From: an uncultured Chloroflexia bacterium
GTDB taxonomy: Bacteria > Chloroflexota > Anaerolineae > Anaerolineales > E44-bin32
Length of the DNA: 64,000 nucleotides
NCBI GenBank assembly: GCA_963789825.1
Contig: CAWBME010000006.1
Location: 974,612 to 1,038,611, forward strand
Reading direction: 5' to 3'
The notes under the pieces were generated by a model that saw nothing but the letters and a program-made list of their open reading frames with translations, had not been told where the DNA came from and did not search any database. Positions 6,410 to 64,000 of this stretch are shown here, piece after piece. How positions within the stretch are numbered: the first letter of the stretch is position 1; each line of letters starts with the position of its first letter. The translations under genes and the position numbers were made by a program.

Positions 6410-7711
6410 ATGCAACATCTAGGCAGGCAACAGCGCAAGGTCGTCGACCTGTATCGGGAGTTTCCCAAGCCGTTCTGGACGCTGGTCGGGGCCACGTTCG
6501 TCGACCGGCTTGGCGGCGCACTGCTCTTCCCCTTCTTCGCCCTGTACTTGACCGACCGCTTCCAGATCGGTATGTCCGAGGTCGGCGTGCTGTTCGCCAT
6601 CTGGTCATTGGCGGCATTCCCTGGCAGCCTGCTGGGCGGAGCCCTGGCCGACCGCATGGGCCGCAAGTACCTGCTGATCTTCAGCCTGCTGGCCAGCTCC
6701 CTGAGCACACTGGCCATGGGGTTCGTGAGCTCACTGCAGGCCTTCTACCTGCTGGCGTTGGTGTCGGGGGTGTTCACCGAGGTCGGGGGCCCGGCCTACA
6801 ACGCCATGGTCGCCGACCTGCTTCCGGAACGTCAGCGGGCCCAGGGCTATGGGATCCTCCGCGTGGCCTTCAACGTGTCGGTCGTGCTCGGGCCGGCGAT
6901 CGGCGGATTGCTGGCCGCTCGTTCCTACCTGTTGCTGTTTGTCATCGATGCTGTGATCAGCGCCGGCGTGGCGCTGTTCGTCTGGTTGGCCATGCCGGAA
7001 ACCCGCCCCGCGCCCCACCCGGACGCCAAGCCCGAGAGCGTTGGCCAGACCTTCGCCGGCTACCTGGTCCCGCTGCGCGATCGGGTCTTCCTGCTGTTCC
7101 TGCTCGCCGGCATGCTGGCATGGTTCGTCTACATGAATATGAACACCACGCTGGGGGTCTACCTGCGCGACGACCACGGCATCGCCGAGAACCTCTACGG
7201 CTTGATCCTCAGTCTGAATGCCATCATGGTGGTCTTCCTGCAATTCCCCATCACCCGCTGGATCGCGCCCTACCGTCCGATGCGGGTGATTGCGGCGGGG
7301 ACGGCGCTGTACGCCGTCGGCTTCGCCATGTATGGCGTCACTTCCACCTACGTCATGTTCCTACTGGCGATGGTCGTAATCACTGTCGGCGAGATGGTGA
7401 TCGCGCCGGTCTACCAGGCGATGGTCGCCGATCTCTCCCCGGAGGCAATGCGCGGGCGCTACATGGCGGTCTCCGGCTTCGCCATCGGCATCCCGTATGC
7501 GATCGGGCCATTGATTGCCGGCAACATCATGGACAACCACGACAGCCGATTGCTCTGGTACTTGTGCGGCGTGGTCGGGATGATCTCGGTGCTGGTCTAC
7601 CTGTATCTGGATCGGTTGGTGCACCCAGCCCCCCGCCCGGCCGAGGCCGGGCTGGCCGCCGACCCCCCAGCGTCCACCCCCGGCTCGATGGATCAGGAGG
7701 CCGTCCGATGA
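6410..7711 (+). CDS. MFS transporter
   Basis: 433-aa ORF with ~12 predicted hydrophobic helices and the MFS loop motif GALADRMGRKY. Confidence 0.8.
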   Translation: MQHLGRQQRKVVDLYREFPKPFWTLVGATFVDRLGGALLFPFFALYLTDRFQIGMSEVGVLFAIWSLAAFPGSLLGGALADRMGRKYLLIFSLLASSLSTLAMGFVSSLQAFYLLALVSGVFTEVGGPAYNAMVADLLPERQRAQGYGILRVAFNVSVVLGPAIGGLLAARSYLLLFVIDAVISAGVALFVWLAMPETRPAPHPDAKPESVGQTFAGYLVPLRDRVFLLFLLAGMLAWFVYMNMNTTLGVYLRDDHGIAENLYGLILSLNAIMVVFLQFPITRWIAPYRPMRVIAAGTALYAVGFAMYGVTSTYVMFLLAMVVITVGEMVIAPVYQAMVADLSPEAMRGRYMAVSGFAIGIPYAIGPLIAGNIMDNHDSRLLWYLCGVVGMISVLVYLYLDRLVHPAPRPAEAGLAADPPASTPGSMDQEAVR

Positions 7712-8514
7712 GTCTGATGCGCAGAGTCGACGAGGCACGCAAGGGTTACGCCACCGGGGACGAGGCGCTCACGGCGCACGCCCATGCGCCCGATCGAATC
7801 GCACAGGCAGCCCGCGAGGAGCATGGCGGCGCCGCTCAGCAGTACCTCGGCGACATGGTGTACGGCGGCCTGGACGGGATCATCACCACGTTCGCCGTTG
7901 TCAGCGGCGTCGCCGGGGCCCAGTTGGGAAGCGACATCGTCCTGGTGCTCGGCCTGGCGAACCTGCTGGCAGACGGCTTCTCGATGGCGATCGGCGCCTA
8001 CCTATCCTCCAAGAGCGACCAGGAGTACTATGATCGCGAGCGTGAACGCGAACGCTGGGAGGTCGAGCACTATCCGGAAGGCGAGAAGGCCGAGTTGCTC
8101 GAGGTGTATCGCAACCGAGGCTACGATTCTGCCGATGCCTCCGCCCTGGTCGAAATCCATTCCCGCCACCCGGATCGTTGGGTCGAGACGATGATGTTCG
8201 ACGAATTGGGCATGGTCAAGGACGAGCGCAAGCCGACGCGCAGCGCCCTGGCAACCTTCGTCGCTTTCCTCATCGCCGGGTCGGTGCCTTTGCTGGTATT
8301 CCTGATCGGCCTGGTTGTGCCGATCCCAGCCCAGACGGCCTTCTGGGTATCGCTGGTTCTCTCGGGCGTCGCCCTGTTCCTGCTGGGTGCGGCCAAGGTG
8401 CTGGTGACGCAGCGCAGCCTGCTGCGCAGCGGCATGGAGACGCTGCTCGTGGGAGGCCTGGCAGCCGGAGTGGCGTATGGGGTTGGGGCGCTGCTCAGGG
8501 GCCTGGTCGGCTGA
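7708..8514 (+). CDS. VIT1/CCC1-family iron/manganese transporter
   Basis: The start ATG 7708 overlaps the MFS stop (ATGA). Family motifs are present: YGGLDGIITTFAVVSG, NLLADGFSMAIGAYLS, and an acidic EYYDRERERERWE helix. Confidence 0.8.
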   Translation: MSLMRRVDEARKGYATGDEALTAHAHAPDRIAQAAREEHGGAAQQYLGDMVYGGLDGIITTFAVVSGVAGAQLGSDIVLVLGLANLLADGFSMAIGAYLSSKSDQEYYDRERERERWEVEHYPEGEKAELLEVYRNRGYDSADASALVEIHSRHPDRWVETMMFDELGMVKDERKPTRSALATFVAFLIAGSVPLLVFLIGLVVPIPAQTAFWVSLVLSGVALFLLGAAKVLVTQRSLLRSGMETLLVGGLAAGVAYGVGALLRGLVG

Positions 8515-8614
8515 CTCCGGCGCGGCGCGACCGGGAATCGCGGCCGCCGCACAGCCTGAGGAGGTTTCTCAAGACGATCGGTCGCCCAATCCGGCGGACC
8601 CGGAGGAGAGAGAG

Positions 8615-9130
8615 ATGGACCAACGTCAACGCACGGGGCTCGCCGGGGGGATCCTACTGATCGTGCTCGGCGCCTGCTTGCTGCTCGTCCGCATGTCGCC
8701 CGACTTCCAGGCGCTGCTTCCGCAGAACCTTGGCTGGCCGCTCATCCTGGTCGGCGTCGGCGCACTGCTGCTCGTGATCGGCCTGATCAGCGGCAACGCG
8801 GCGATGGCGGTGCCGGCGTGCATCGTCGCCGGGATCGGACTGATCCTGAACTACCAGGTGGCCACCGGCGATTGGGGCAGCTGGCTGTACCTGTGGGCCC
8901 TGATCCCGTTCTTCGCCGGGCTGGGGACCGTCCTGGCCGGCATCCTGGGGATGAATCCCCACCCGGTCCATTCCCGACGGGCTTTGGACGATGGTGGTCA
9001 GCCTGGCGCTGTTCCTGGTTTTCTCTTCGATCTTCGGCGGCCCAGTGCCGGCCGGCCCCTACTGGCCGGCGCTGCTCATCGCCCTGGGCCTGGCGGAACT
9101 GATCCGCAACATCTTCCGCGCCGGGAGTGA
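8615..9130 (+). CDS. Polytopic membrane protein (DUF5668/LiaF-N-like), apparently frameshifted twice
   Basis: ATG 8615 follows GGAGGAG. The native-looking hydrophobic sequence moves from the 8477 frame to the 8991 frame (MVVSLALFLVFSSIFGG...LIRNIFRAG) near 8970. The stop TGA 9128..9130 overlaps the next gene's GTG (GTGA). Confidence 0.45.
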   Translation: MDQRQRTGLAGGILLIVLGACLLLVRMSPDFQALLPQNLGWPLILVGVGALLLVIGLISGNAAMAVPACIVAGIGLILNYQVATGDWGSWLYLWALIPFFAGLGTVLAGILGMNPHPVHSRRALDDGGQPGAVPGFLFDLRRPSAGRPLLAGAAHRPGPGGTDPQHLPRRE

Positions 9131-9734
9131 GCGCGGCCGCCTTGCGACGGAGCGCTGTGTACTGGGGGATCGGGCTGATCGGCCTGGGCCTCCTGCTGCT
9201 GCTCGACAGTCTGGGCCTCCTGCCTTTCGATCTGAGCGGACTGGTCATCCCCATCCTCCTGATCCTTGCCGGGATCTGGGTCATTTGGGGACTCTCCGGC
9301 GCCAGGCGCAGCGCAGGCGCGACCGTGCTGCGGGCGCCACTGGAAGAGGCCTCGTCCTCGAGCTGGATCTCCGCCACATGGGGGGACGCCTGAGACTGGA
9401 TGGCTCGAGCACCGAGCCAGATGTGCTCACGGCTCAGTTCGCCGCCGCCGCGCGCCATGAGTTGGTGCGCAGCGGCGGGACGCTCAAGCTGAGCCTGCGC
9501 CCGGCAGACGACTGGGCGTTCCTCGCCGCGCCCTGGGCCTGGCAGCCAGGCGATCCGCCGCACTGGGCCGTGCATGTCCCAACGACGGTTCCCGTTTCCG
9601 CGGCGGTCCAGCTCCGTCGGTTGATTCGAGAAGAACTCCGAGGCATGGCCGGGCATGGTCCGAGCGCTGTTCGACAGCCGGCGCATGGATCACACGGAGG
9701 ATCGAGATGCACAAGTCGCGGCCACAGATCCTGA
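9127..9734 (+). pseudogene. LiaF-like protein (TM N-terminus + beta-rich C-terminal domain), fragmented by frameshifts; 3' end uncertain
   Basis: ORF 9127..9393 gives the TM part (YWGIGLIGLGLLLLLDSLGLLPFDLSGLVIPILLILAGIWVIWG). The continuation LELDLRHMGGRLRLDGSSTEPDVLTAQF...TLKLSLRP lies in the 8991..9734 frame. Confidence 0.35.
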
Positions 9735-10346
9735 TCGGCCTGGCGCTGATCGGCGGCGGGCTGTTGTTCCTGCTGCAGAGCTATGGGATCCTGCCCGAGG
9801 GCGCAGCGCTGTTCTGGACACTGGCGTTCGCCATCAGCGGCGGCATCTTTCTGTATGTCTTCGCCCTCAACCGAGACAACTGGTGGGCGCTGGTTCCCGC
9901 CGCAGCTCTGCTGGGCGTGGCAGGGGTCATCGCTCTGGGCACCTTCCTTCCGGCGGCCGCTGATCCGTGGTCGGGGGCGCTGTTCATGGCTGTGCTATCG
10001 CTCGGATTCTGGGGGATCTGGTTGAGCAAGCGCGATGCCTGGTGGGCGATCATTCCCGCCGGCGCGATCCTGTCAGTCTCGGCGATGATCGTCGCCGGTG
10101 AACTTCTGCCGGGCGAGCTCGCCCCGCTTAGCGTGCTGTTCCTCGGGCTCGGCGTTGACCTTCGGGCTACTCCTGCTTGTACCCACCGAAGAGGGGCGCA
10201 TGCGCTGGCCGGCGGTCCCGGCCCTGGTCTTGCTCCTGATCGGCGCGTTCTCGACCCTGCTCTTCAGCCCTTCACTTCAACTCGCGGGGCCGGTGCTGCT
10301 GATCCTAGGGGGCATCCTGCTGGTCGTTCGCGCGCTGCGCAAGTAG
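9707..10346 (+). CDS. Polytopic membrane protein (DUF5668-like), frameshift ~10150
   Basis: ORF 9707..10708 is hydrophobic up to ...SVLFLGLG. The sequence then continues in ORF 10098..10346 (LTFGLLLLVP...LLILGGILLVVRALRK-stop). Confidence 0.5.
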
Positions 10347-10379
10347 CGCCTCCTGCGCGGATCACTGGGAAGGAGAACG

Positions 10380-54551: not shown

Positions 54552-55778
54552 CTACGCGGCGGACACGCCGACGGCAGCCTCCGACTGGATCGCCTCGAGC
54601 CGATCCAGTCGCTCCCACGGGAGGTCAAGGTCGGTCCGTCCAAAATGCCCGTAGGCGGCAGTCTGCTGGTAGATTGGGTGCAGCAGATCGAGGTCGCGGA
54701 TGATCGCCCCGGGTCGCAGATCGAAGATCCTGGTGATGATCTCACTGATCTCCGTGTCGGGCAGCTTGCCGGTGCCGAAGGTCTCGATGTTGACGGAGAG
54801 CGGATGCGAGACCCCGATGGCATAGGCCACCTGGATCTCGCAGCGGTCGGCCAACCCCGCAGCAACGATGTGCTTGGCGACGTAGCGTGCGGCATAGGCG
54901 CCGGAGCGATCGACCTTGGTCGGGTCCTTGCCGCTAAAACAGCCGCCGCCGTGGCGGCCCATGCCGCCGTAGGTGTCGACGATGATCTTGCGTCCGGTCA
55001 GGCCGGAGTCGCCCATTGGGCCGCCGATCTCGAAGGACCCGGTTGGGTTGACGAAGTACTTGATTCCGTCCTGCACCAGCTCCGCCGGCAGGATCGGCTT
55101 GACGATCTCCTCGATCACGCCTTCGCGGATCCGTTCGGCAGGCGTCCCGGGGGCGTGCTGCGTGCTCACCAGGACGGTGTCGACCCGCTTGGGACGTCCG
55201 AACGCGTACTCGATCGTCACCTGCGCCTTGCCGTCGGGCCGCAGCCAGGGAAGCCCCCCCGCCTTGCGCACCTCTGCCAGGCGGCGGGTCAGGCGGTGCG
55301 AGAGCTCGATCGGCATGGGCATCAGCGCCGTCGTTTCATGGCAGGCGTAGCCGAACATCATCCCTTGGTCACCGGCGCCGATCGTCTCAACATCCTCGTC
55401 GCTCAACTTGTGGCTGCGCACCTCGAGGGAAGCGTCCACACCTTGCTTGATGTTCGGGCTCTGCTTGCCCAGCGCCACGAGCACGCCGCAGGTGCTGCCG
55501 TCGAAACCTTTGCTGCTATTGTCGTAGCCGATGTCGGTGATCACCTTGCGTGCCAGTTCGTCGAAGTTCACCTGGGCGAGCGAGGTAATCTCGCCGAACA
55601 GCATGACGAAACCGGTCTTGGTCGCCGTCTCGCAGGCCACCCTTGAGCGCGGGTCCTGCGCGATGCAGGCGTCCAGCACGGCGTCTGAGACCTGGTCACA
55701 CAGCTTGTCCGGGTGGCCCTCGGTGACCGACTCCGAGGTGAAGAACAATGACGGGGAGGTCATGAAAGAATTGGTCAC
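54552..55778 (-). CDS. metK: S-adenosylmethionine synthetase
   Basis: Motifs: [44 protein letters not shown]. Confidence 0.97.
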
Positions 55779-55850: not shown

Positions 55851-55963
55851 CTCTCATCTTCCAGATTCGTACTTCTGCCGGACTTGGCACCACACCAGGA
55901 TCTTGCTCCGGGTAGGTTGCCGAGGCATCAAAGGGCCGGTCCCTCCGCCTCTCTGGATAAGAG
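55851..55963 (-). promoter_or_regulatory. SAM-I (S-box) riboswitch aptamer upstream of metK
   Basis: The minus strand reads CTCTTATCCAGAGAGGCGGAGGGACCGGCCCTTTGATGCCTCGGCAACC...GGTGCCAAGTCCGGCAGAAG...GGAAGATGAGAG. This matches the conserved S-box core blocks. Confidence 0.9.
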
Positions 55964-59319: not shown

Positions 59320-59325
59320 AAGGTC

Positions 59326-59342
59326 TGCTGGTCTGACCAGCA
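59326..59342. promoter_or_regulatory. Perfect 17-bp palindrome, candidate GntR-type operator
   Basis: TGCTGGTC-T-GACCAGCA has 8+1+8 perfect dyad symmetry. It starts 7 nt after the -10 and ends 14 nt before ATG 59356. Its half-site TGGTC/GACCA fits the GT-Nx-AC rule for GntR-family operators. Confidence 0.5.
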
Positions 59343-59355
59343 TACCAGAGGGCGC

Positions 59356-61018
59356 ATGCAGATTGAGCAGATCGATCACCTGAGGCTTGGCCGAGCAGGT
59401 CGCGGGGCGGCTGGCGGCGTCCATCCTGGATGGTGGCTTGCAGGCCGGCGAGCAGCTCCCTGCCGAGCGCGACCTGATGACCCGTTTCGGCGTCAGCCGG
59501 GCCACGCTGCGCGAGGCGCTGCGCATGTTGGCCGAGCACGAACTGCTCGCGGCCCGCCCCGGCGTCGGCTGGTTCGTGCGCCAACCGGGGAAGCGGGTGC
59601 TGCCTTCGGTGATGGCGCTGGCGCAGGCCCACCGCCCTACGCTCCTGGCCGACACCCAGCCGGCGCGCCAGCCGCCGCCGGAGGGCCCGCGACGCCTGAC
59701 GGTCGTCGCCGAGAAGCCGCTGCATATCCCTAACCTGCGCACCGACCGCCTGGGCACTTTCGACTTCATCTCCTGGTGGGAACGGGACAAGGTCCAGGCC
59801 GCCCGCGTGCTGGTCGTCGGCGCAGGTGCCCTCGGCAACGAGGTCGTCAAGAGCCTGGCGCTGATGGGCATCGGTCATCTGTTCCTGGTCGACTTCGACA
59901 CGATCGAGGCCGCCAACCTCAGCCGCTCGGTGTTCTTTCGCGAGGCCGACACCGGGAAGGAAAAGGCGGTCGTCGTGGCGGCACGCGCCAAGGCGCTCAA
60001 CCCACAGATCCACGTCCAGCACCTGCAAGGGGACGTCACCACCCGACTGGGGTTGGGCATCGTCCGCCGCATGGACGTGGTCATCGGCTGCCTGGACAAC
60101 CGGGAGGCCCGCCTGGCGCTCAACCGCTTCTGTTACTGGATGGGCAAGCCGATGGTCGATGGCGCCATCCAGGAGCTGCTCGGCCTGGTGCGAGTGTTCG
60201 TCCCCGGACAGGGCGCCTGCTTCGAATGCACCCTGACCGAGCAGGCGCGCCGCGAGATCTCGCTGCGCTACTCCTGCCCGCTGCTCGCCCGTCACAACAT
60301 TCTGCAGGGCAAGGTGCCCACCACCCCGACCATCGCTTCGATCATCGGCTCGATGCAGGCCCAGGAAGCGCTCAAGCTGATTCACGCCATGCCGGTCGAG
60401 GCCGGCAAGGTGACCCATTTCAACGGCCTGACCAATGCGATGCACACCACCGCCTATGTGGCGCGGGAGGACTGCGAAAGCCACTGGACCTATGGGGAAG
60501 TGATCGAACTCGCCGCTCGTGCCGACAACACTCGGGTGCGGGACCTGCTCGAGGTCGCCCAGCGGGACCTCGGTCCGGAAGCGGTGATCGAACTCGACCA
60601 CGAACTGCTCCTTCGGCTGAGCTGCCCGCTCTGCCAGACCGTCGAGGAGGTCATCCGCCCGCTGTCCGAGGTGAGCTTCGAAGCCGGCCACTGCCCGTCC
60701 TGCGGGGTTCTGCGAGAGACCGACATGACGCACCTGCTCACCGGGCGGGAAGGCTTCCTCGATCGCACGCTGTCCAGCATCGGCGTCCCGCCGCTGCACA
60801 TCTTGCGCGCCCACAATGGCCGCGAGTACCGCTTCTACGAACTGACCGGCGACCTGGCGCAAGCGCTGCACTTCTCCGATTTCGAAGGACCCCCACCAGC
60901 CAGCAGCGATCCGCTCTCCGGCCAGCGCGTCCGGCTCGGGCCGGAGGTCGGAGAGACACCTGCTCCGGGCAGCCCGGCGCGTGGGCGGATCGTCGTCCAC
61001 CAATCGGAGGCGCAGTGA
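59356..61018 (+). CDS. E1-like Ubl-activating enzyme (ThiF/UBA fold) with an N-terminal GntR-type wHTH and C-terminal C4 zinc ribbon
   Basis: ORF 59387..61018. The wHTH is LPAERDLMTRFGVSRATLREALRMLAEHELLAARPGVGWFV. The Rossmann region is VLVVGAGALGNEV...LVDFDTIEAANLSRSVFF. ACFEC is followed by YSCP (Cys at 60275..60277), positioned like the catalytic Cys of UBA-type E1s. The zinc ribbon CPLC...CPSC lies at 60623..60703. The probable true start ATG 59356 (MQIEQIDHLRL) is one base out of frame (extra G ~59389). Confidence 0.8.
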
Positions 61019-61932
61019 CCATCTCGCTCACCCCGCCTCCTGCTCCACCGCCGCTGCGCCGCTCGCCGCGCCTGCCGCGCTGGCTGGGGATCATCTTTCC
61101 CCTGGTGGTACTGACTGCGCTCGGGATGACGTATGCCGCCGCCGTCAACCGCACGCTGCACCCGGCTGCTGTCCAGGCCGGCGGGGCGGCGGCGCTCGGC
61201 CTGGCCGCCGGCGCGCTGACGCGCAGGAGCGCCGCCGGCCGGCCGCTCGCCACGCAATGGTGGATCGCCGAGGCGGCGGCCACTCTCGGACTGCTGTTGG
61301 CCGGGCTGCTTTCCGGCGGCCGCAGCGGCATCGCCGCGCCGCTGGTCGGCGGCTCTGCGGCGCGCCTGGCAGACCTGGCCTGGCTGGCGCTTGCCGGGCT
61401 CGGCGCGTGGCTCGCGCTCCGCTACCACCGGCCGCGCCCGATGCGCCCGCCCCGACGGACGCTGCGGCAGCGGATCCATTCCTCCCAAGACGGCTGGCGA
61501 ATCCGCCTGCAGCGCCTGTCGCCCGCCCGCCTCTGGCGCCGCCATCGGCTGGGGCCGATGCACACCCGTCCGCGCCTCCCCACTGCCGCGGCCGCCGCCA
61601 CTGCACAGTCAGCTCCCCGGCATGCGCCCACCAGCCGCACCAGGCCGTCCCCCAAGGTCAAGCCCGCCAAAGCCCGCCGCCTGACCACCGCTCGCGCCTC
61701 CCGGCGCGCACCGAGGCGGATCGCACAGCGCCCCATTCGCTTCACCGGCAGGGAAGAATCGCGCTGCCCATACTGTCTGGAACGGGTATCCCCAAATGAC
61801 CCACGCGGATCCAGAGTCTGCCCGGTCTGCCACACTCGCCACCATGCGGACTGCTGGGCTGTAACCGGAGTCTGCCAGATGCCGCATCTGTACGTGGACG
61901 CCTCCGCCGGACGACAAGGAGCGAACCGATGA
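61015..61932 (+). CDS. 4-TM membrane protein with a C-terminal RING-like (treble-clef) zinc finger; candidate E3
   Basis: This is the 3' part of ORF 59776..61932. GTG 61015 overlaps the E1 stop (GTGA) after GGAGG. Four hydrophobic helices and an Arg/Pro-rich linker are followed by CPYC-x14-CPVC-HTRHHADC-x6-C (61765..61875). Confidence 0.65.
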   Translation: MTISLTPPPAPPPLRRSPRLPRWLGIIFPLVVLTALGMTYAAAVNRTLHPAAVQAGGAAALGLAAGALTRRSAAGRPLATQWWIAEAAATLGLLLAGLLSGGRSGIAAPLVGGSAARLADLAWLALAGLGAWLALRYHRPRPMRPPRRTLRQRIHSSQDGWRIRLQRLSPARLWRRHRLGPMHTRPRLPTAAAAATAQSAPRHAPTSRTRPSPKVKPAKARRLTTARASRRAPRRIAQRPIRFTGREESRCPYCLERVSPNDPRGSRVCPVCHTRHHADCWAVTGVCQMPHLYVDASAGRQGANR

Positions 61933-62777
61933 CCGACCTGGCCGTGACGATAGTCCTTCCCAACGGCGGCGCGCGCACGGCGGAGATGCCGGACGAGGTC
62001 AGCGTGCGTGATCTGCTGGCCGAGCTGACCTCGCTGCTCAAGCTCCCTACCCTCGGGCCGGATGGCCGGGCGATGGGCTACCGCATCGACAGCAAGGCGC
62101 TCGGCCGCGAGCTGCGCGAGGACGAGACGCTGGCCCAGGCTGGCGTTCCCGCCAACGACCGGCTGATCCTGACCGCCGACATCACCGCTGGCGCCAATCC
62201 AGTCGAGCAGTCACCGCGTCAGCGCCGGCTGCGCGGCGACCACGAGCGCATGGTCGAGTTGGCGGCGCGCAGCGATGTGATTCGCTTCGAGGCCCGGCCG
62301 GAGCATCCCGGCTGGGCGCCCGAGCGCTATGTCCTGACGTTTCGCTGCAAAGGCATCGCCAGCGTCGATCGGCAGGGCCGGCCCAAGTTCTCCGAACATC
62401 ATCAGGTGGAGATCTACCTGCACAGCCAATACCCGCAACGCTGGCCAGGGATGAAATGGCTGACGCCGATCTGGCATCCCAACATCAACCATCTCAATGG
62501 AAGCGTGTGTATCGACGCCGCCTGGTGGACGGCCGGTCGCTCGCTCGACCGGCTGGTGATCATGCTGGGCGAGATGATCCAGTACAAGAACTTCCACGAT
62601 GACCCGAAGCAGCCTCCCTTTCCGTGGGACGTCGAGGCTGCGCGCTGGTGCCGGGAGTATCGCCGCCGGCACCCCGATGCCTTCCCTGTCGATCGCCGTG
62701 AACTGCTGCGGCCCGAACGCGTCAAGCTCGCCGGTCAGCCGGCGGCCAAGGCGCGCCCACGCGTCCGCCTGAAGTAG
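61929..62777 (+). CDS. Ubl-E2 fusion: N-terminal beta-grasp Ubl (aa 1-88, ends ITAG) + UBC-fold E2 with HPN motif and catalytic Cys
   Basis: ATG 61929 overlaps the previous stop (ATGA). The E2 core is YPQRWPGMKWLTPIWHPNINHLNGSVCID (HPN 62475..62483, Cys 62508..62510). The N-terminal 85 aa are ~70% identical to the free Ubl at 62824..63120. Confidence 0.8.
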   Translation: MTDLAVTIVLPNGGARTAEMPDEVSVRDLLAELTSLLKLPTLGPDGRAMGYRIDSKALGRELREDETLAQAGVPANDRLILTADITAGANPVEQSPRQRRLRGDHERMVELAARSDVIRFEARPEHPGWAPERYVLTFRCKGIASVDRQGRPKFSEHHQVEIYLHSQYPQRWPGMKWLTPIWHPNINHLNGSVCIDAAWWTAGRSLDRLVIMLGEMIQYKNFHDDPKQPPFPWDVEAARWCREYRRRHPDAFPVDRRELLRPERVKLAGQPAAKARPRVRLK

Positions 62778-62823
62778 CCGGTGCCGACGGGAAGATCCAA
62801 CTCAGCCACAGGAGGCAGACACC

Positions 62824-63120
62824 ATGACCGACAACGTGAAAGAGGAAACCCGGGCAGCGGAACTCTCGGTGACGATTGTGCTCCCCTCCGGGGGAAGCCG
62901 GACGGCGGACGTGCCGCGTGAGGTGCCGGTGCGCGAGTTGATCCCCGAGCTCACCACATCGCTCGGCTTGCCGACGACCGGGCCCGACGGACGACCGACC
63001 AGCTACCGCTTGGACAGCAAGGCCCTCGGTCGCGAGCTGCGCGAGGAAGAGACGCTGGCCTCGGCCGGCGTCCCAGAAGGCGACCGCCTGATCGTGACCG
63101 CCGACGTGACCGCCGGCTGA
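62824..63120 (+). CDS. Free ubiquitin-like (beta-grasp) protein ending ...VTAG-stop
   Basis: A 98-aa ORF after AGGAGG. It has an alternating beta/alpha pattern (VTIVLPSGGSRTADVPREVPVRELIPELTTSLGLP...YRLDSKALGRELREEETLASAGVPEGDRLIVTADVTAG) and an exposed C-terminal Gly. Confidence 0.75.
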   Translation: MTDNVKEETRAAELSVTIVLPSGGSRTADVPREVPVRELIPELTTSLGLPTTGPDGRPTSYRLDSKALGRELREEETLASAGVPEGDRLIVTADVTAG

Positions 63121-63137
63121 GCTCGATCGGCTTTCAT

Positions 63138-63168
63138 CCCCGCCCGGCGGCATGCGCCCCGGGCGGGG
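63138..63168 (+). other. GC-rich hairpin between the Ubl and JAB genes, 3' arm abutting the JAB Shine-Dalgarno
   Basis: CCCCGCCCGG (63138..63147) pairs perfectly with CCGGGCGGGG (63159..63168). The sequence GGGGAGG that follows and overlaps it is the only RBS for ATG 63182. No U-tract follows. Confidence 0.5.
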
Positions 63169-63181
63169 AGGCCAGGTGGAT

Positions 63182-63844
63182 ATGATCTCGGACTCGACAC
63201 GCATTCGGATCGGCGCCAGGGAAGCCATCCAAGCCGCGCCCGGGCACATGCCGGTGCAGCAGGCGCTCCACTGGCTCTCGGCGTACGACAGCCCTCGCCC
63301 GGCGGAGGGAATGCGCGTGTTCATGACGCCCTCGGCCTACGTTCGCTGCTGCGCGCATGCTGGCAGCGATCTGGTGCACGAGGTCGGCGGGGCGCTCGTC
63401 GGCCGGTGGCGGGTGGATGCCGCCACGCGCCAGCCCTACCAGGTGATCGAGGCGGTCCTGCCGGCGCGCCACACCCGCCACGGCCCTGCCTACCTGACCT
63501 TCACCCAGGACAGCCTGGTGGCATTGAACGATGATCTCGAGGAGCGTTTCCCCGGCCGGCTGATGCTCGGCTGGTATCACACCCACCCGCGGATGGGGGT
63601 CTTTCTCTCCGGGCAGGATCTCTGGATCCACGAGCACTTCTTCCCCGAGCCCTGGCAGGTGGCGCTGGTGATCGAGCCGGTGACGCGCGCCGGCGGGTTC
63701 TTCGTGCGGGACAAGGCAGGTCGCCTCGACCCACACGCCTACACCGGCTTCCACGAGCTGCTGCGCGACGGACGCGGCAGCCTGATGGTGTGGACCAATC
63801 TCAGCCAAGAGGTAGTGGCAGTCGAGGAAGGAGTATCTGGATGA
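63182..63844 (+). CDS. JAB/MPN+ (JAMM) metalloisopeptidase
   Basis: ORF 63152..63844, start ATG 63182. It has a Glu in HEVGGALVG and the JAMM motif HTHPRMGVFLSGQD (63578..63619). Confidence 0.85.
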   Translation: MISDSTRIRIGAREAIQAAPGHMPVQQALHWLSAYDSPRPAEGMRVFMTPSAYVRCCAHAGSDLVHEVGGALVGRWRVDAATRQPYQVIEAVLPARHTRHGPAYLTFTQDSLVALNDDLEERFPGRLMLGWYHTHPRMGVFLSGQDLWIHEHFFPEPWQVALVIEPVTRAGGFFVRDKAGRLDPHAYTGFHELLRDGRGSLMVWTNLSQEVVAVEEGVSG

Positions 63845-64000
63845 GCCGGTCGATGCGCACGTATTACTACGCCGTGGCAGGCGCCATGGGTGGGCTGATC
63901 GCCTGGCAGGTCAGCAACTTGATCGGGCTGTCGTTCTCGGCCAATCTGTACCTCAACGAAGTCGTCGTCGGTGGCCTGATCGGCCTGTGCATCGGACTGC
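63841..64000 (+). CDS. Membrane protein, 5' fragment (continues beyond the window), translationally coupled to JAB
   Basis: ATG 63841 overlaps the JAB stop (ATGA). Translation: MSRSMRTYYYAVAGAMGGLIAWQVSNLIGLSFSANLYLNEVVVGGLIGLCIGL, with at least two hydrophobic helices. Confidence 0.5.
   Translation, partial: MSRSMRTYYYAVAGAMGGLIAWQVSNLIGLSFSANLYLNEVVVGGLIGLCIGL

Follow-up and report, generated by a model that had tools for sequence, protein, structure and literature searches.

We have analyzed a stretch of 64,000 nt (hereafter the window) from an uncultured Chloroflexia bacterium, assembly GCA_963789825.1, contig CAWBME010000006.1, positions 974,612-1,038,611 of the forward strand, assigned by GTDB to Bacteria; Chloroflexota; Anaerolineae; Anaerolineales; E44-bin32. 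It contains a cassette of ubiquitin-like conjugation genes in which the ubiquitin-like protein (Ubl) is encoded twice, once as the N-terminal domain of the conjugating enzyme (E2) and once as a free protein. Sequence comparisons indicate that these are old, separately conserved paralogs. We lean, if only slightly, towards the view that the Ubl-E2 fusion is a pro-protein that the JAB metallopeptidase of the same cassette would cut after Gly88.

The fusion is an open reading frame of 282 aa at 61929..62777 (+ strand). Its first 88 residues (61929..62192, with the Gly88 codon at 62190..62192) form the fused Ubl, which ends in DITAG and was delimited by BLASTP, Pfam, the ortholog alignment and AlphaFold2 (AF2) with Foldseek. 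A linker, ANPVEQS (62193..62213), recognized in the ortholog alignment, a survey of junctions and the AF2 model, leads from Gly88 to helix 1 of a canonical UBC-type E2 domain (62214..62777), identified by Pfam UQ_con, PDB sequence matches and invariant residues. The free paralog follows on the same strand at 62824..63120 (98 aa; BLASTP, Pfam and a structural model), with its own Shine-Dalgarno sequence AGGAGG at 62811..62816. By BLASTP, residues 3-88 of the fusion align without gaps to residues 13-98 of the free protein, with 61 of 86 positions identical (71%), 74 of 86 positive and an E value of 8e-41 (single comparison). The first-pass annotation had counted 61 of 85 by hand, which is essentially the same figure, and its description of a Ubl present both as an E2 fusion and as a free protein holds, both open reading frames lying exactly where it had put them. 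At the DNA level the shared core of 84 codons is 72.6% identical, and the longest identical run has 17 nt. Both Ubl segments terminate in D(I/V)TAG. TGA comes directly after Gly98 in the free protein. After Gly88 the fusion continues with ANPVEQSPRQRRL and the UBC domain, and the tryptic peptide spanning the junction is LILTADITAGANPVEQSPR.

The two copies are predicted to be ubiquitin-like beta-grasps. Pfam assigned both to the YukD-like beta-grasp family (PF08817; 35.8 bits for the fused and 52.8 bits for the free segment, cutoff 27). Residues 1-88 of the fusion were modeled by AF2 as beta-beta-alpha-beta-beta-(short helix)-beta with a predicted local distance difference test score (pLDDT) of about 80-90, and Foldseek matched this domain to ubiquitin, Caldiarchaeum ubiquitin (25-27% identity), SUMO, ISG15 and one bacterial Ubl. 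The model of the free Ubl (pLDDT 83) gave the same matches. The structural prediction thus bears out the beta-grasp that had been proposed for the N-terminal segment from the letters alone. The C-terminal part of the fusion scored 39.3 bits with UQ_con (PF00179, cutoff 27). In a PDB sequence search it aligned to UBE2K, UBE2N and UBE2D, with the HPN motif (62475..62483) and Cys194 (62508..62510) on the catalytic positions, and helices are present after the active site. Residues H183, P184, N185, C194 and K282 are invariant in the ortholog alignment.

The fusion protein has 1938 database homologs. The best 120 of them all have the YukD plus UQ_con architecture and all come from Anaerolineae/Chloroflexota assemblies. 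A species-level scan (one genome per species) found relatives of the Ubl-E2 in 412 genomes, and we analyzed the 80 best-matching loci, labeled Anaerolineae/Chloroflexota almost throughout, in which the cassette is 70-87% identical in protein sequence across species. The order E1, membrane RING, Ubl-E2, Ubl, JAB was kept at all 80 loci as far as the contigs extend, with the RING gene preceding E1 in two of them. The junction T[A/T]DITAG was invariant (80/80). The residue after the junction Gly (P1') was A in 52, S in 13, G in 7, K in 2 and V in 1, that is, a small residue in 72 of 75, and the linker that leads to the UBC helix (..SPRMRRL) varied in length and sequence. A free Ubl accompanied the fusion at every one of the 76 loci with enough contig sequence. 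These results answer two checks proposed earlier, whether orthologous operons keep both copies and whether they keep the TAG end and the junction Gly, and in both cases in the affirmative. At these loci the E2 lacks a start of its own and is encoded only with the Ubl attached.

The claim that the free copy needs no processing holds for the window and for 70 of the 76 orthologs, which end in D[V/I]TAG followed by the stop, and fails for the other six, in which short extensions follow TAG. These extensions (L004, L006, L008, L009 and two more loci) are GR in four cases, AQ in one and a Cys-rich ACCACCA in another. The Ala-Gly end had also been singled out as different from the Gly-Gly of ubiquitin, ThiS and MoaD. 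It is found across the family and is not exceptional among Ubls: UFM1, ATG8 and ATG12 likewise end in X-Gly.

We then compared the two copies over their 84-residue core. Mean identity between fused and free Ubls was 71.8% within the same genome and 70.2% between different genomes, against 77.9% among fused and 82.3% among free copies, and the nearest neighbor was of the same type (fused or free) in 149 of 150 sequences. The proportion of synonymous differences (pS) between fused and free was 0.44 in the window pair, with a median of 0.68 and saturation in 17 of 75 within-genome pairs. Outgroup Ubls were equidistant from the two Anaerolineae copies (37.9% vs 38.3%). Since synonymous sites are near saturation, identity is alike within and between genomes and the outgroups are equidistant, the duplication is old. 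On these comparisons we place it in the stem of this type of cassette, before the sampled species diverged, with no regular homogenization between the copies and strong constraint on both. A recent duplication or gene conversion is ruled out by the same near-saturated sites, the 71.8% vs 70.2% and the neighbors of like type. A neighbor-joining tree did not recover the exact split into fused and free (35/100 bootstraps), so that reciprocal monophyly is not proven. Regarding selection, which the first-pass annotation had advised measuring, the ratio of non-synonymous to synonymous substitution (dN/dS) between orthologs was 0.05-0.13 for each copy, indicating strong purifying selection. The conserved residues are nearly the same in both, and the fused copy retains the entire surface that is conserved in the free one. 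Fixed differences are few: the fused copy has Ala15 and Ile85, and the free copy Ser/Thr, a Pro at the helix start and mostly Val. Two Ubl lineages that have been separate since before the Anaerolineae radiation are therefore probably not redundant.

An exhaustive search of cluster representatives extended the family to 1585 relatives, and we examined the contexts of 89 loci. A metagenome scan was run here with a six-sequence alignment as query; with the single protein P0128 as query it returned no match. At 30-53% identity the relatives were either unfused E2s, beginning near residue 94 of the query, or Ubl-E2 fusions that retain ..[IV]xAG, rarely AA, at the junction. In the commonest outgroup layout, which we take to be the ancestral one, E1 and JAB accompany an unfused E2 that is immediately preceded by a free Ubl gene, whose product typically ends in FPEVTAG. 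An example is locus L161, with the order CAP, E1, Ubl, E2, JAB, JAB, Prok-RING_1 and two consecutive JAB genes (6880..9415). For each sampled fusion outside Anaerolineae the closest relative by E2 domain was unfused, as in L090 (fused) and L137 (split), which are 64% identical; it follows that the fusion arose several times, by loss of the Ubl stop codon. Fusion and free Ubl occur together outside the Anaerolineae set at L081 and L100, and in L100 (4..1131) two free Ubl genes with long extensions precede the Ubl-E2 fusion. Other operons have the fusion only (L082/83, L084/85, L090, L117, L118). All of them have an E1, and a JAB is in view except on the short L085 contig. A family hidden Markov model run on six-frame translations detected no other Ubl in these operons, up to 6-7 kb per side on the longer contigs, which leaves the fused Ubl as the sole possible modifier that their sequence offers. 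Among the distinct free Ubls of the outgroups, roughly one in four has a short C-terminal extension after AG. Because the six extended Anaerolineae proteins do so too, trimming after Ala-Gly appears to be a trait of the family.

In the mechanism that we infer, the Rpn11-like JAB would cut the peptide bond after Gly88 (..DITAG|ANPVEQ..), freeing a mature Ubl with a C-terminal Gly and an E2 similar at its N-terminus to the E2s that stand alone in related operons. The other, unfused paralog would be made ready for use. Both Ubls would be adenylated by the E1 and transferred to Cys194 of the E2, conjugation would take place at the membrane with the aid of the membrane-anchored RING protein, and the JAB would additionally reverse it. 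The fused Ubl would be produced 1:1 with the E2 and may hold it inactive until cut.

Several observations point to a precursor. The junction T[A/T]DITAG matches the mature end of the free copy, D[V/I]TAG*, and what lies beyond it is variable. The junction falls, besides, in a segment of low confidence between two folded domains: pLDDT dips at residues 81-100 of the fusion and the linker has no modeled secondary structure. The shared conserved surface and the low dN/dS of both copies are what one would predict if E1, E2 and JAB all handled both Ubls. Given that the E1 requires a free C-terminal carboxylate, the Ubl of the fusion-only operons must be excised to serve as modifier. There are also precedents. 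The solved structure closest to the JAB is that of the Caldiarchaeum Rpn11 homolog, an enzyme that cuts linear pro-ubiquitin precisely behind the C-terminal Gly (PMC6043591). In the Ubl-E2 fusion of Type I Bub, BubAB, cleavage by its JAB domain after a conserved Gly was demonstrated in 2024 (PMC11601596). JAB release was predicted for the Ubl plus E2 proteins of E1/E2/RING systems by Kaur et al. (2020; PMC7159879). The first-pass annotation had offered two possibilities, release of a second Ubl pool by the JAB or a fused Ubl acting in cis on the E2. Of these, the fusion-only relatives, the recurrent fusions, the propeptides, the Rpn11-like JAB and BubAB all favor a precursor.

There are also points that weigh against it. 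The support for cleavage is comparative throughout. The free Ubl is kept in all 76 operons and we saw no loss of a copy and no un-fusion, although these would be expected under a simple double supply; universal retention therefore means that either the two Ubls differ in function or the fused one does more than be released. The fusion-only operons are just 30-42% identical to the window protein, are found in other contexts and lie in some cases on short contigs, and their genomes might carry a Ubl elsewhere. Finally, the UBC half of the AF2 model is weak (mean pLDDT 67), giving no basis for a packing of the Ubl on the E2.

In the first alternative, which we consider possible but distinctly less probable than a precursor, the fused Ubl would stay on the E2 for good and act in cis, only the free paralog being conjugated. 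It might dock the E2 on one Ubl site of a dimeric ThiF-type E1, as the ubiquitin-fold domain of eukaryotic E1 does, or occupy the backside of the E2, or the JAB as a pseudo-substrate. The retention of the free Ubl beside every fusion speaks for such a tether, and so does an E2 made only with the Ubl attached. The distinct lineages of the two copies and the fused-specific Ala15 and Ile85 agree with it, as does the E1, a short ThiF-type enzyme in which sequence searches detected no ubiquitin-fold domain. On the other hand, the DITAG end never varies, while the linker after it does so freely. When a Ubl domain is a permanent part of a larger protein, its C-terminal Gly tail is usually lost, so the invariant tail speaks against a tether. 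The related fusion-only operons need release, and both experimental prokaryotic precedents, a Ubl-E2 and a pro-Ubl, involve cleavage (PMC11601596, PMC6043591). The separate lineages and their universal retention argue against simple redundancy and are equally compatible with two released, functionally distinct modifiers.

A more elaborate form of the same idea would join it to the transcription of the operon. A palindrome, GGTCTGCTGGTC-T-GACCAGCATACC, found by an inverted-repeat search at 59322..59346, 41 nt ahead of the start of E1, is a putative GntR-type operator. In 53 of 64 orthologous loci its core GGTCnGACC precedes the E1 start by 53-75 nt, with a background of 0.017 per 200 nt. The palindrome is probably the operator of the GntR domain of the E1 itself, so that the E1 would bind DNA as an autoregulator. 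The fused Ubl would then be a permanent tether that docks the E2 on the E1 dimer or gates the E2, only the free copy would be conjugated, and the operon would be fed back through the GntR domain of the E1 on the upstream palindrome. We consider this combination unlikely. If true, it would describe a bacterial ubiquitin system with labor split between two Ubls and with an E1 doubling as its own transcription factor.

It is more doubtful still that the copies are redundant, the fusion being a neutral by-product of the loss of a stop codon, tolerated because the JAB trims it, and the second copy restoring or boosting dosage. The Ubl located directly upstream of E2 in the outgroups, the recurrence of fusions, the equidistance of the outgroup Ubls and the near identity of the conserved residues fit with this. 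However, redundancy does not predict both copies in all 76 species-level genomes with saturated synonymous divergence, nor a clean separation in two lineages without homogenization. That the fusion is an artefact of frameshift or mis-assembly, or the similarity a recent duplication or conversion without function, has a negligible chance: the same two-domain protein is found in all the best 120 database matches and in 80 genomes, which rules out an artefactual fusion, and the synonymous sites are heavily diverged both in the window pair and in the median.

The complete cassette has seven genes: GntR-E1, membrane RING, Ubl-E2, Ubl, Rpn11-like JAB, membrane FHA and VWA. The part that lies in the window is tightly packed on the + strand. 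The E1 (59387..61018, +, 543 aa) has by Pfam a GntR winged-helix domain (5.6e-21), a ThiF-type adenylation domain (PF00899, 7.7e-55, 186 bits vs a cutoff of 28.1) and a C-terminal region. Among solved sequences it comes closest to the active adenylation domains of UBA7/UBA1 (E about 1e-25). The following gene (61015..61932, +), whose GTG start overlaps the E1 stop (GTGA), codes for a polytopic membrane protein, a putative E3, with a RING-like zinc finger at the C-terminus. Prok-RING_1 gave 23.8 bits here, under the cutoff of 29.1; the Cys/His pattern CPYC..CPVCH..HH..C..C is present, the gene is syntenic across all examined orthologous loci and in the outgroup locus L161 Prok-RING_1 passes the cutoff (35.2 bits). 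The JAB/MPN+ metallopeptidase, Rpn11-like, is annotated by Pfam JAB at 63152..63844 (+; PF01398, 7.8e-08, 32.6 bits vs 22.5) and has an intact JAMM motif HTHPx7SxxD (HTHPx7SGQD). The alignment to its nearest solved sequence, the Caldiarchaeum Rpn11 homolog (6fju/6fjv, E 1.6e-10), spans this motif. The listed start, ATG 63152, falls within a hairpin, ATG 63182 has GGGAGG ahead of it, and the ortholog alignments start at about residue 8-18 of the long form; the start is probably ATG 63182. Only the beginning of the next gene (63841..64000, +), which runs off the window, is present; from its translation and its orthologs it codes for a polytopic membrane protein with FHA. In the orthologs there is at this place a membrane protein with a C-terminal FHA domain and then a protein with signal peptide, VWA domain and transmembrane (TM) segment. 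Both were present at all 61 loci with room on the contig, and Pfam assigned the two domains at L010 (7833..8690 and 8695..9900). These two proteins could serve the membrane RING as substrates or adaptors.

The basic C-terminal tail of the E2 reads ..KPR[IV]RLK with the last Lys invariant (RPRVRLK at 62754..62774 of the window), and distant E2 relatives retain a C-terminal x-I-x-L/I-x motif. The cytoplasmic tail of the VWA protein (loci L003-L080) ends in ..R[IV]KLK, often twice, the same basic/hydrophobic strand-like motif. The likeness of these tails suggests that E2 and VWA protein may have a common docking partner. The gene borders overlap (GTGA, ATGA, ATGA) except on either side of the free Ubl, where there are spacers. 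A GC-rich intercistronic hairpin (63137..63168, +; minimum free energy -45.6 kcal/mol, z -3.65) lies between this gene and that of the JAB, and hairpins of unrelated sequence were found at the same position in 56 of 74 loci (median z -4.35). It is likely a partial terminator or mRNA stabilizer that raises expression of the Ubl over that of the downstream genes. The spacers, ribosome-binding site and 3' hairpin of the free Ubl hint at a separate control of its expression. Beyond the cassette the flanks were conserved only in the closest relative, so the neighboring genes are uninformative on function. Elsewhere in the window, ordinary and unrelated to the cassette, is a SAM riboswitch (Rfam RF00162, 85.7 bits) at 55851..55963 (-), upstream of metK (54552..55778).

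Bacterial Ubl conjugation has so far been studied mainly in sporadic phage-defense operons (CBASS, Bil, Bub), and the Anaerolineae cassette differs from these. It has a full eukaryote-like set of E1, canonical E2, putative RING E3 and Rpn11-like protease, with the E3 anchored in the membrane. The pair of fused and free Ubl offers a testable handle to distinguish a precursor from a tethered regulator. If both Ubls are released, a single enzyme cascade would handle two distinct bacterial modifiers, which bears on how a diversification of the ubiquitin/NEDD8 kind starts. If only the precursor is confirmed, the principle of BubAB would be extended to canonical Cys-dependent E2s.

The cassette belongs to the prokaryotic tri-ligase systems (Ubl, E1, UBC E2, RING, JAB) known from comparative genomics, an approach by which Burroughs, Iyer and Aravind reportedly described such cassettes in 2011. 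It has a ThiF-type E1, an E2 with HPN and Cys, a beta-grasp Ubl ending in Gly, a JAB with intact JAMM and, with its finger below the Prok-RING_1 cutoff, a putative RING protein. The same five components make up the tri-ligase cassettes of Kaur et al. (2020; PMC7159879), and the outgroup L161 represents the plain form. The fusions described in that work have an N-terminal EAD1 and belong to FtsH/vWA-MoxR conflict systems with caspase-like effectors. The Anaerolineae cassette, in contrast, is without EAD, MoxR and FtsH, has the RING on a polytopic membrane protein and a GntR domain on the E1, and has the free Ubl, TM-FHA and VWA-TM proteins as fixed members. The fusion-only operon at L082 (E1, small zinc finger, Ubl-E2, JAB) adjoins a protein with an EAD8 effector-associated domain and TPR repeats (8953..10374), a neighbor that ties this distant relative, unlike the Anaerolineae cassette, to those conflict systems (PMC7159879).

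Type I Bub (PMC11601596) resembles the window in the N-terminal position of the Ubl on the E2 and in the conserved Gly at the junction. However, the Bub E2 uses a catalytic Ser and is missing the UBC helices at its C-terminus. The E1, joined to JAB in BubCD, has no catalytic Cys. A DUF6527 serine protease (BubE) is encoded as well, and there is neither a RING nor a second free Ubl. In the window the E2 is canonical, with HPN and Cys194, JAB and E1 are separate genes, a free paralog coexists with the fusion and Pfam found no match to DUF6527 among the cassette proteins. The Cys-dependent E2, the separate JAB and E1 and the missing DUF6527 rule out membership in Bub. PADLOC (BilA/BilB/BilC, Cap2) gave no match for the E2, Ubl and RING proteins, matched the E1 only via its adenylation domain (BilD, 31 bits) and the JAB weakly and generically, ruling out Bil (BilABCD) and Type II CBASS Cap2/Cap3.

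The operon of Caldiarchaeum subterraneum (PMC5654768, PMC6043591) is similar in bringing together a eukaryote-like set of E1, E2, RING, ubiquitin and Rpn11. Its ubiquitin precursor is trimmed by the Rpn11 homolog (PMC6043591). Among solved structures, those from this operon come nearest to the JAB and to the Ubl fold of the window. It differs in that a 9-residue tail, not an enzyme, is removed, in the Gly-Gly end and in the single ubiquitin gene (PMC5654768, PMC6043591); the archaeal operon has no membrane anchor, FHA, VWA or GntR, and its RING is small. The Anaerolineae arrangement may also be set beside the genes of eukaryotic ubiquitin. In the eukaryotic precursors (UBA52, RPS27A, polyubiquitin), encoded by several genes, the modifier is also N-terminal in the fusion and is freed by a deubiquitinase after its terminal Gly. 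The partners are ribosomal proteins or further ubiquitin and not an E2, and all the genes yield identical mature ubiquitin, whereas the two mature Ubls here would differ at about 29% of positions.

The best Pfam match of both copies, PF08817, is the family of YukD/EsaB of type VII secretion, and the public label of the free copy is 'EsaB/YukD family protein'. YukD is not known to be conjugated or to have a reactive C-terminal Gly. The Ubls here end in an invariant Gly and sit beside E1, E2, RING and JAB. None of the seven genes is a type VII secretion component such as an FtsK-like ATPase or a WXG100 protein, which rules out a YukD function. The label refers to the fold and not to what the protein does; Iyer (2006) discussed YukD solely in the context of ESX. 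None of the E2, Ubl, RING and JAB proteins could be placed in an NCBIfam family, and full-text searches of the literature combining Anaerolineae/Chloroflexota with ubiquitin terms retrieved nothing specific. The literature examined, outside which fall two key papers by Burroughs, Iyer and Aravind, has no mention of a pair of fused and free Ubl. Ubl-E2 fusions released by a JAB were already known, as a prediction (PMC7159879) and as demonstrated in BubAB (PMC11601596). What appears to be new is the fixed pair of fused and free Ubl, the Anaerolineae elaboration around it (GntR-E1, membrane RING, TM-FHA, VWA-TM) and the presence of relatives in 412 species-representative genomes, in varied genomic neighborhoods.

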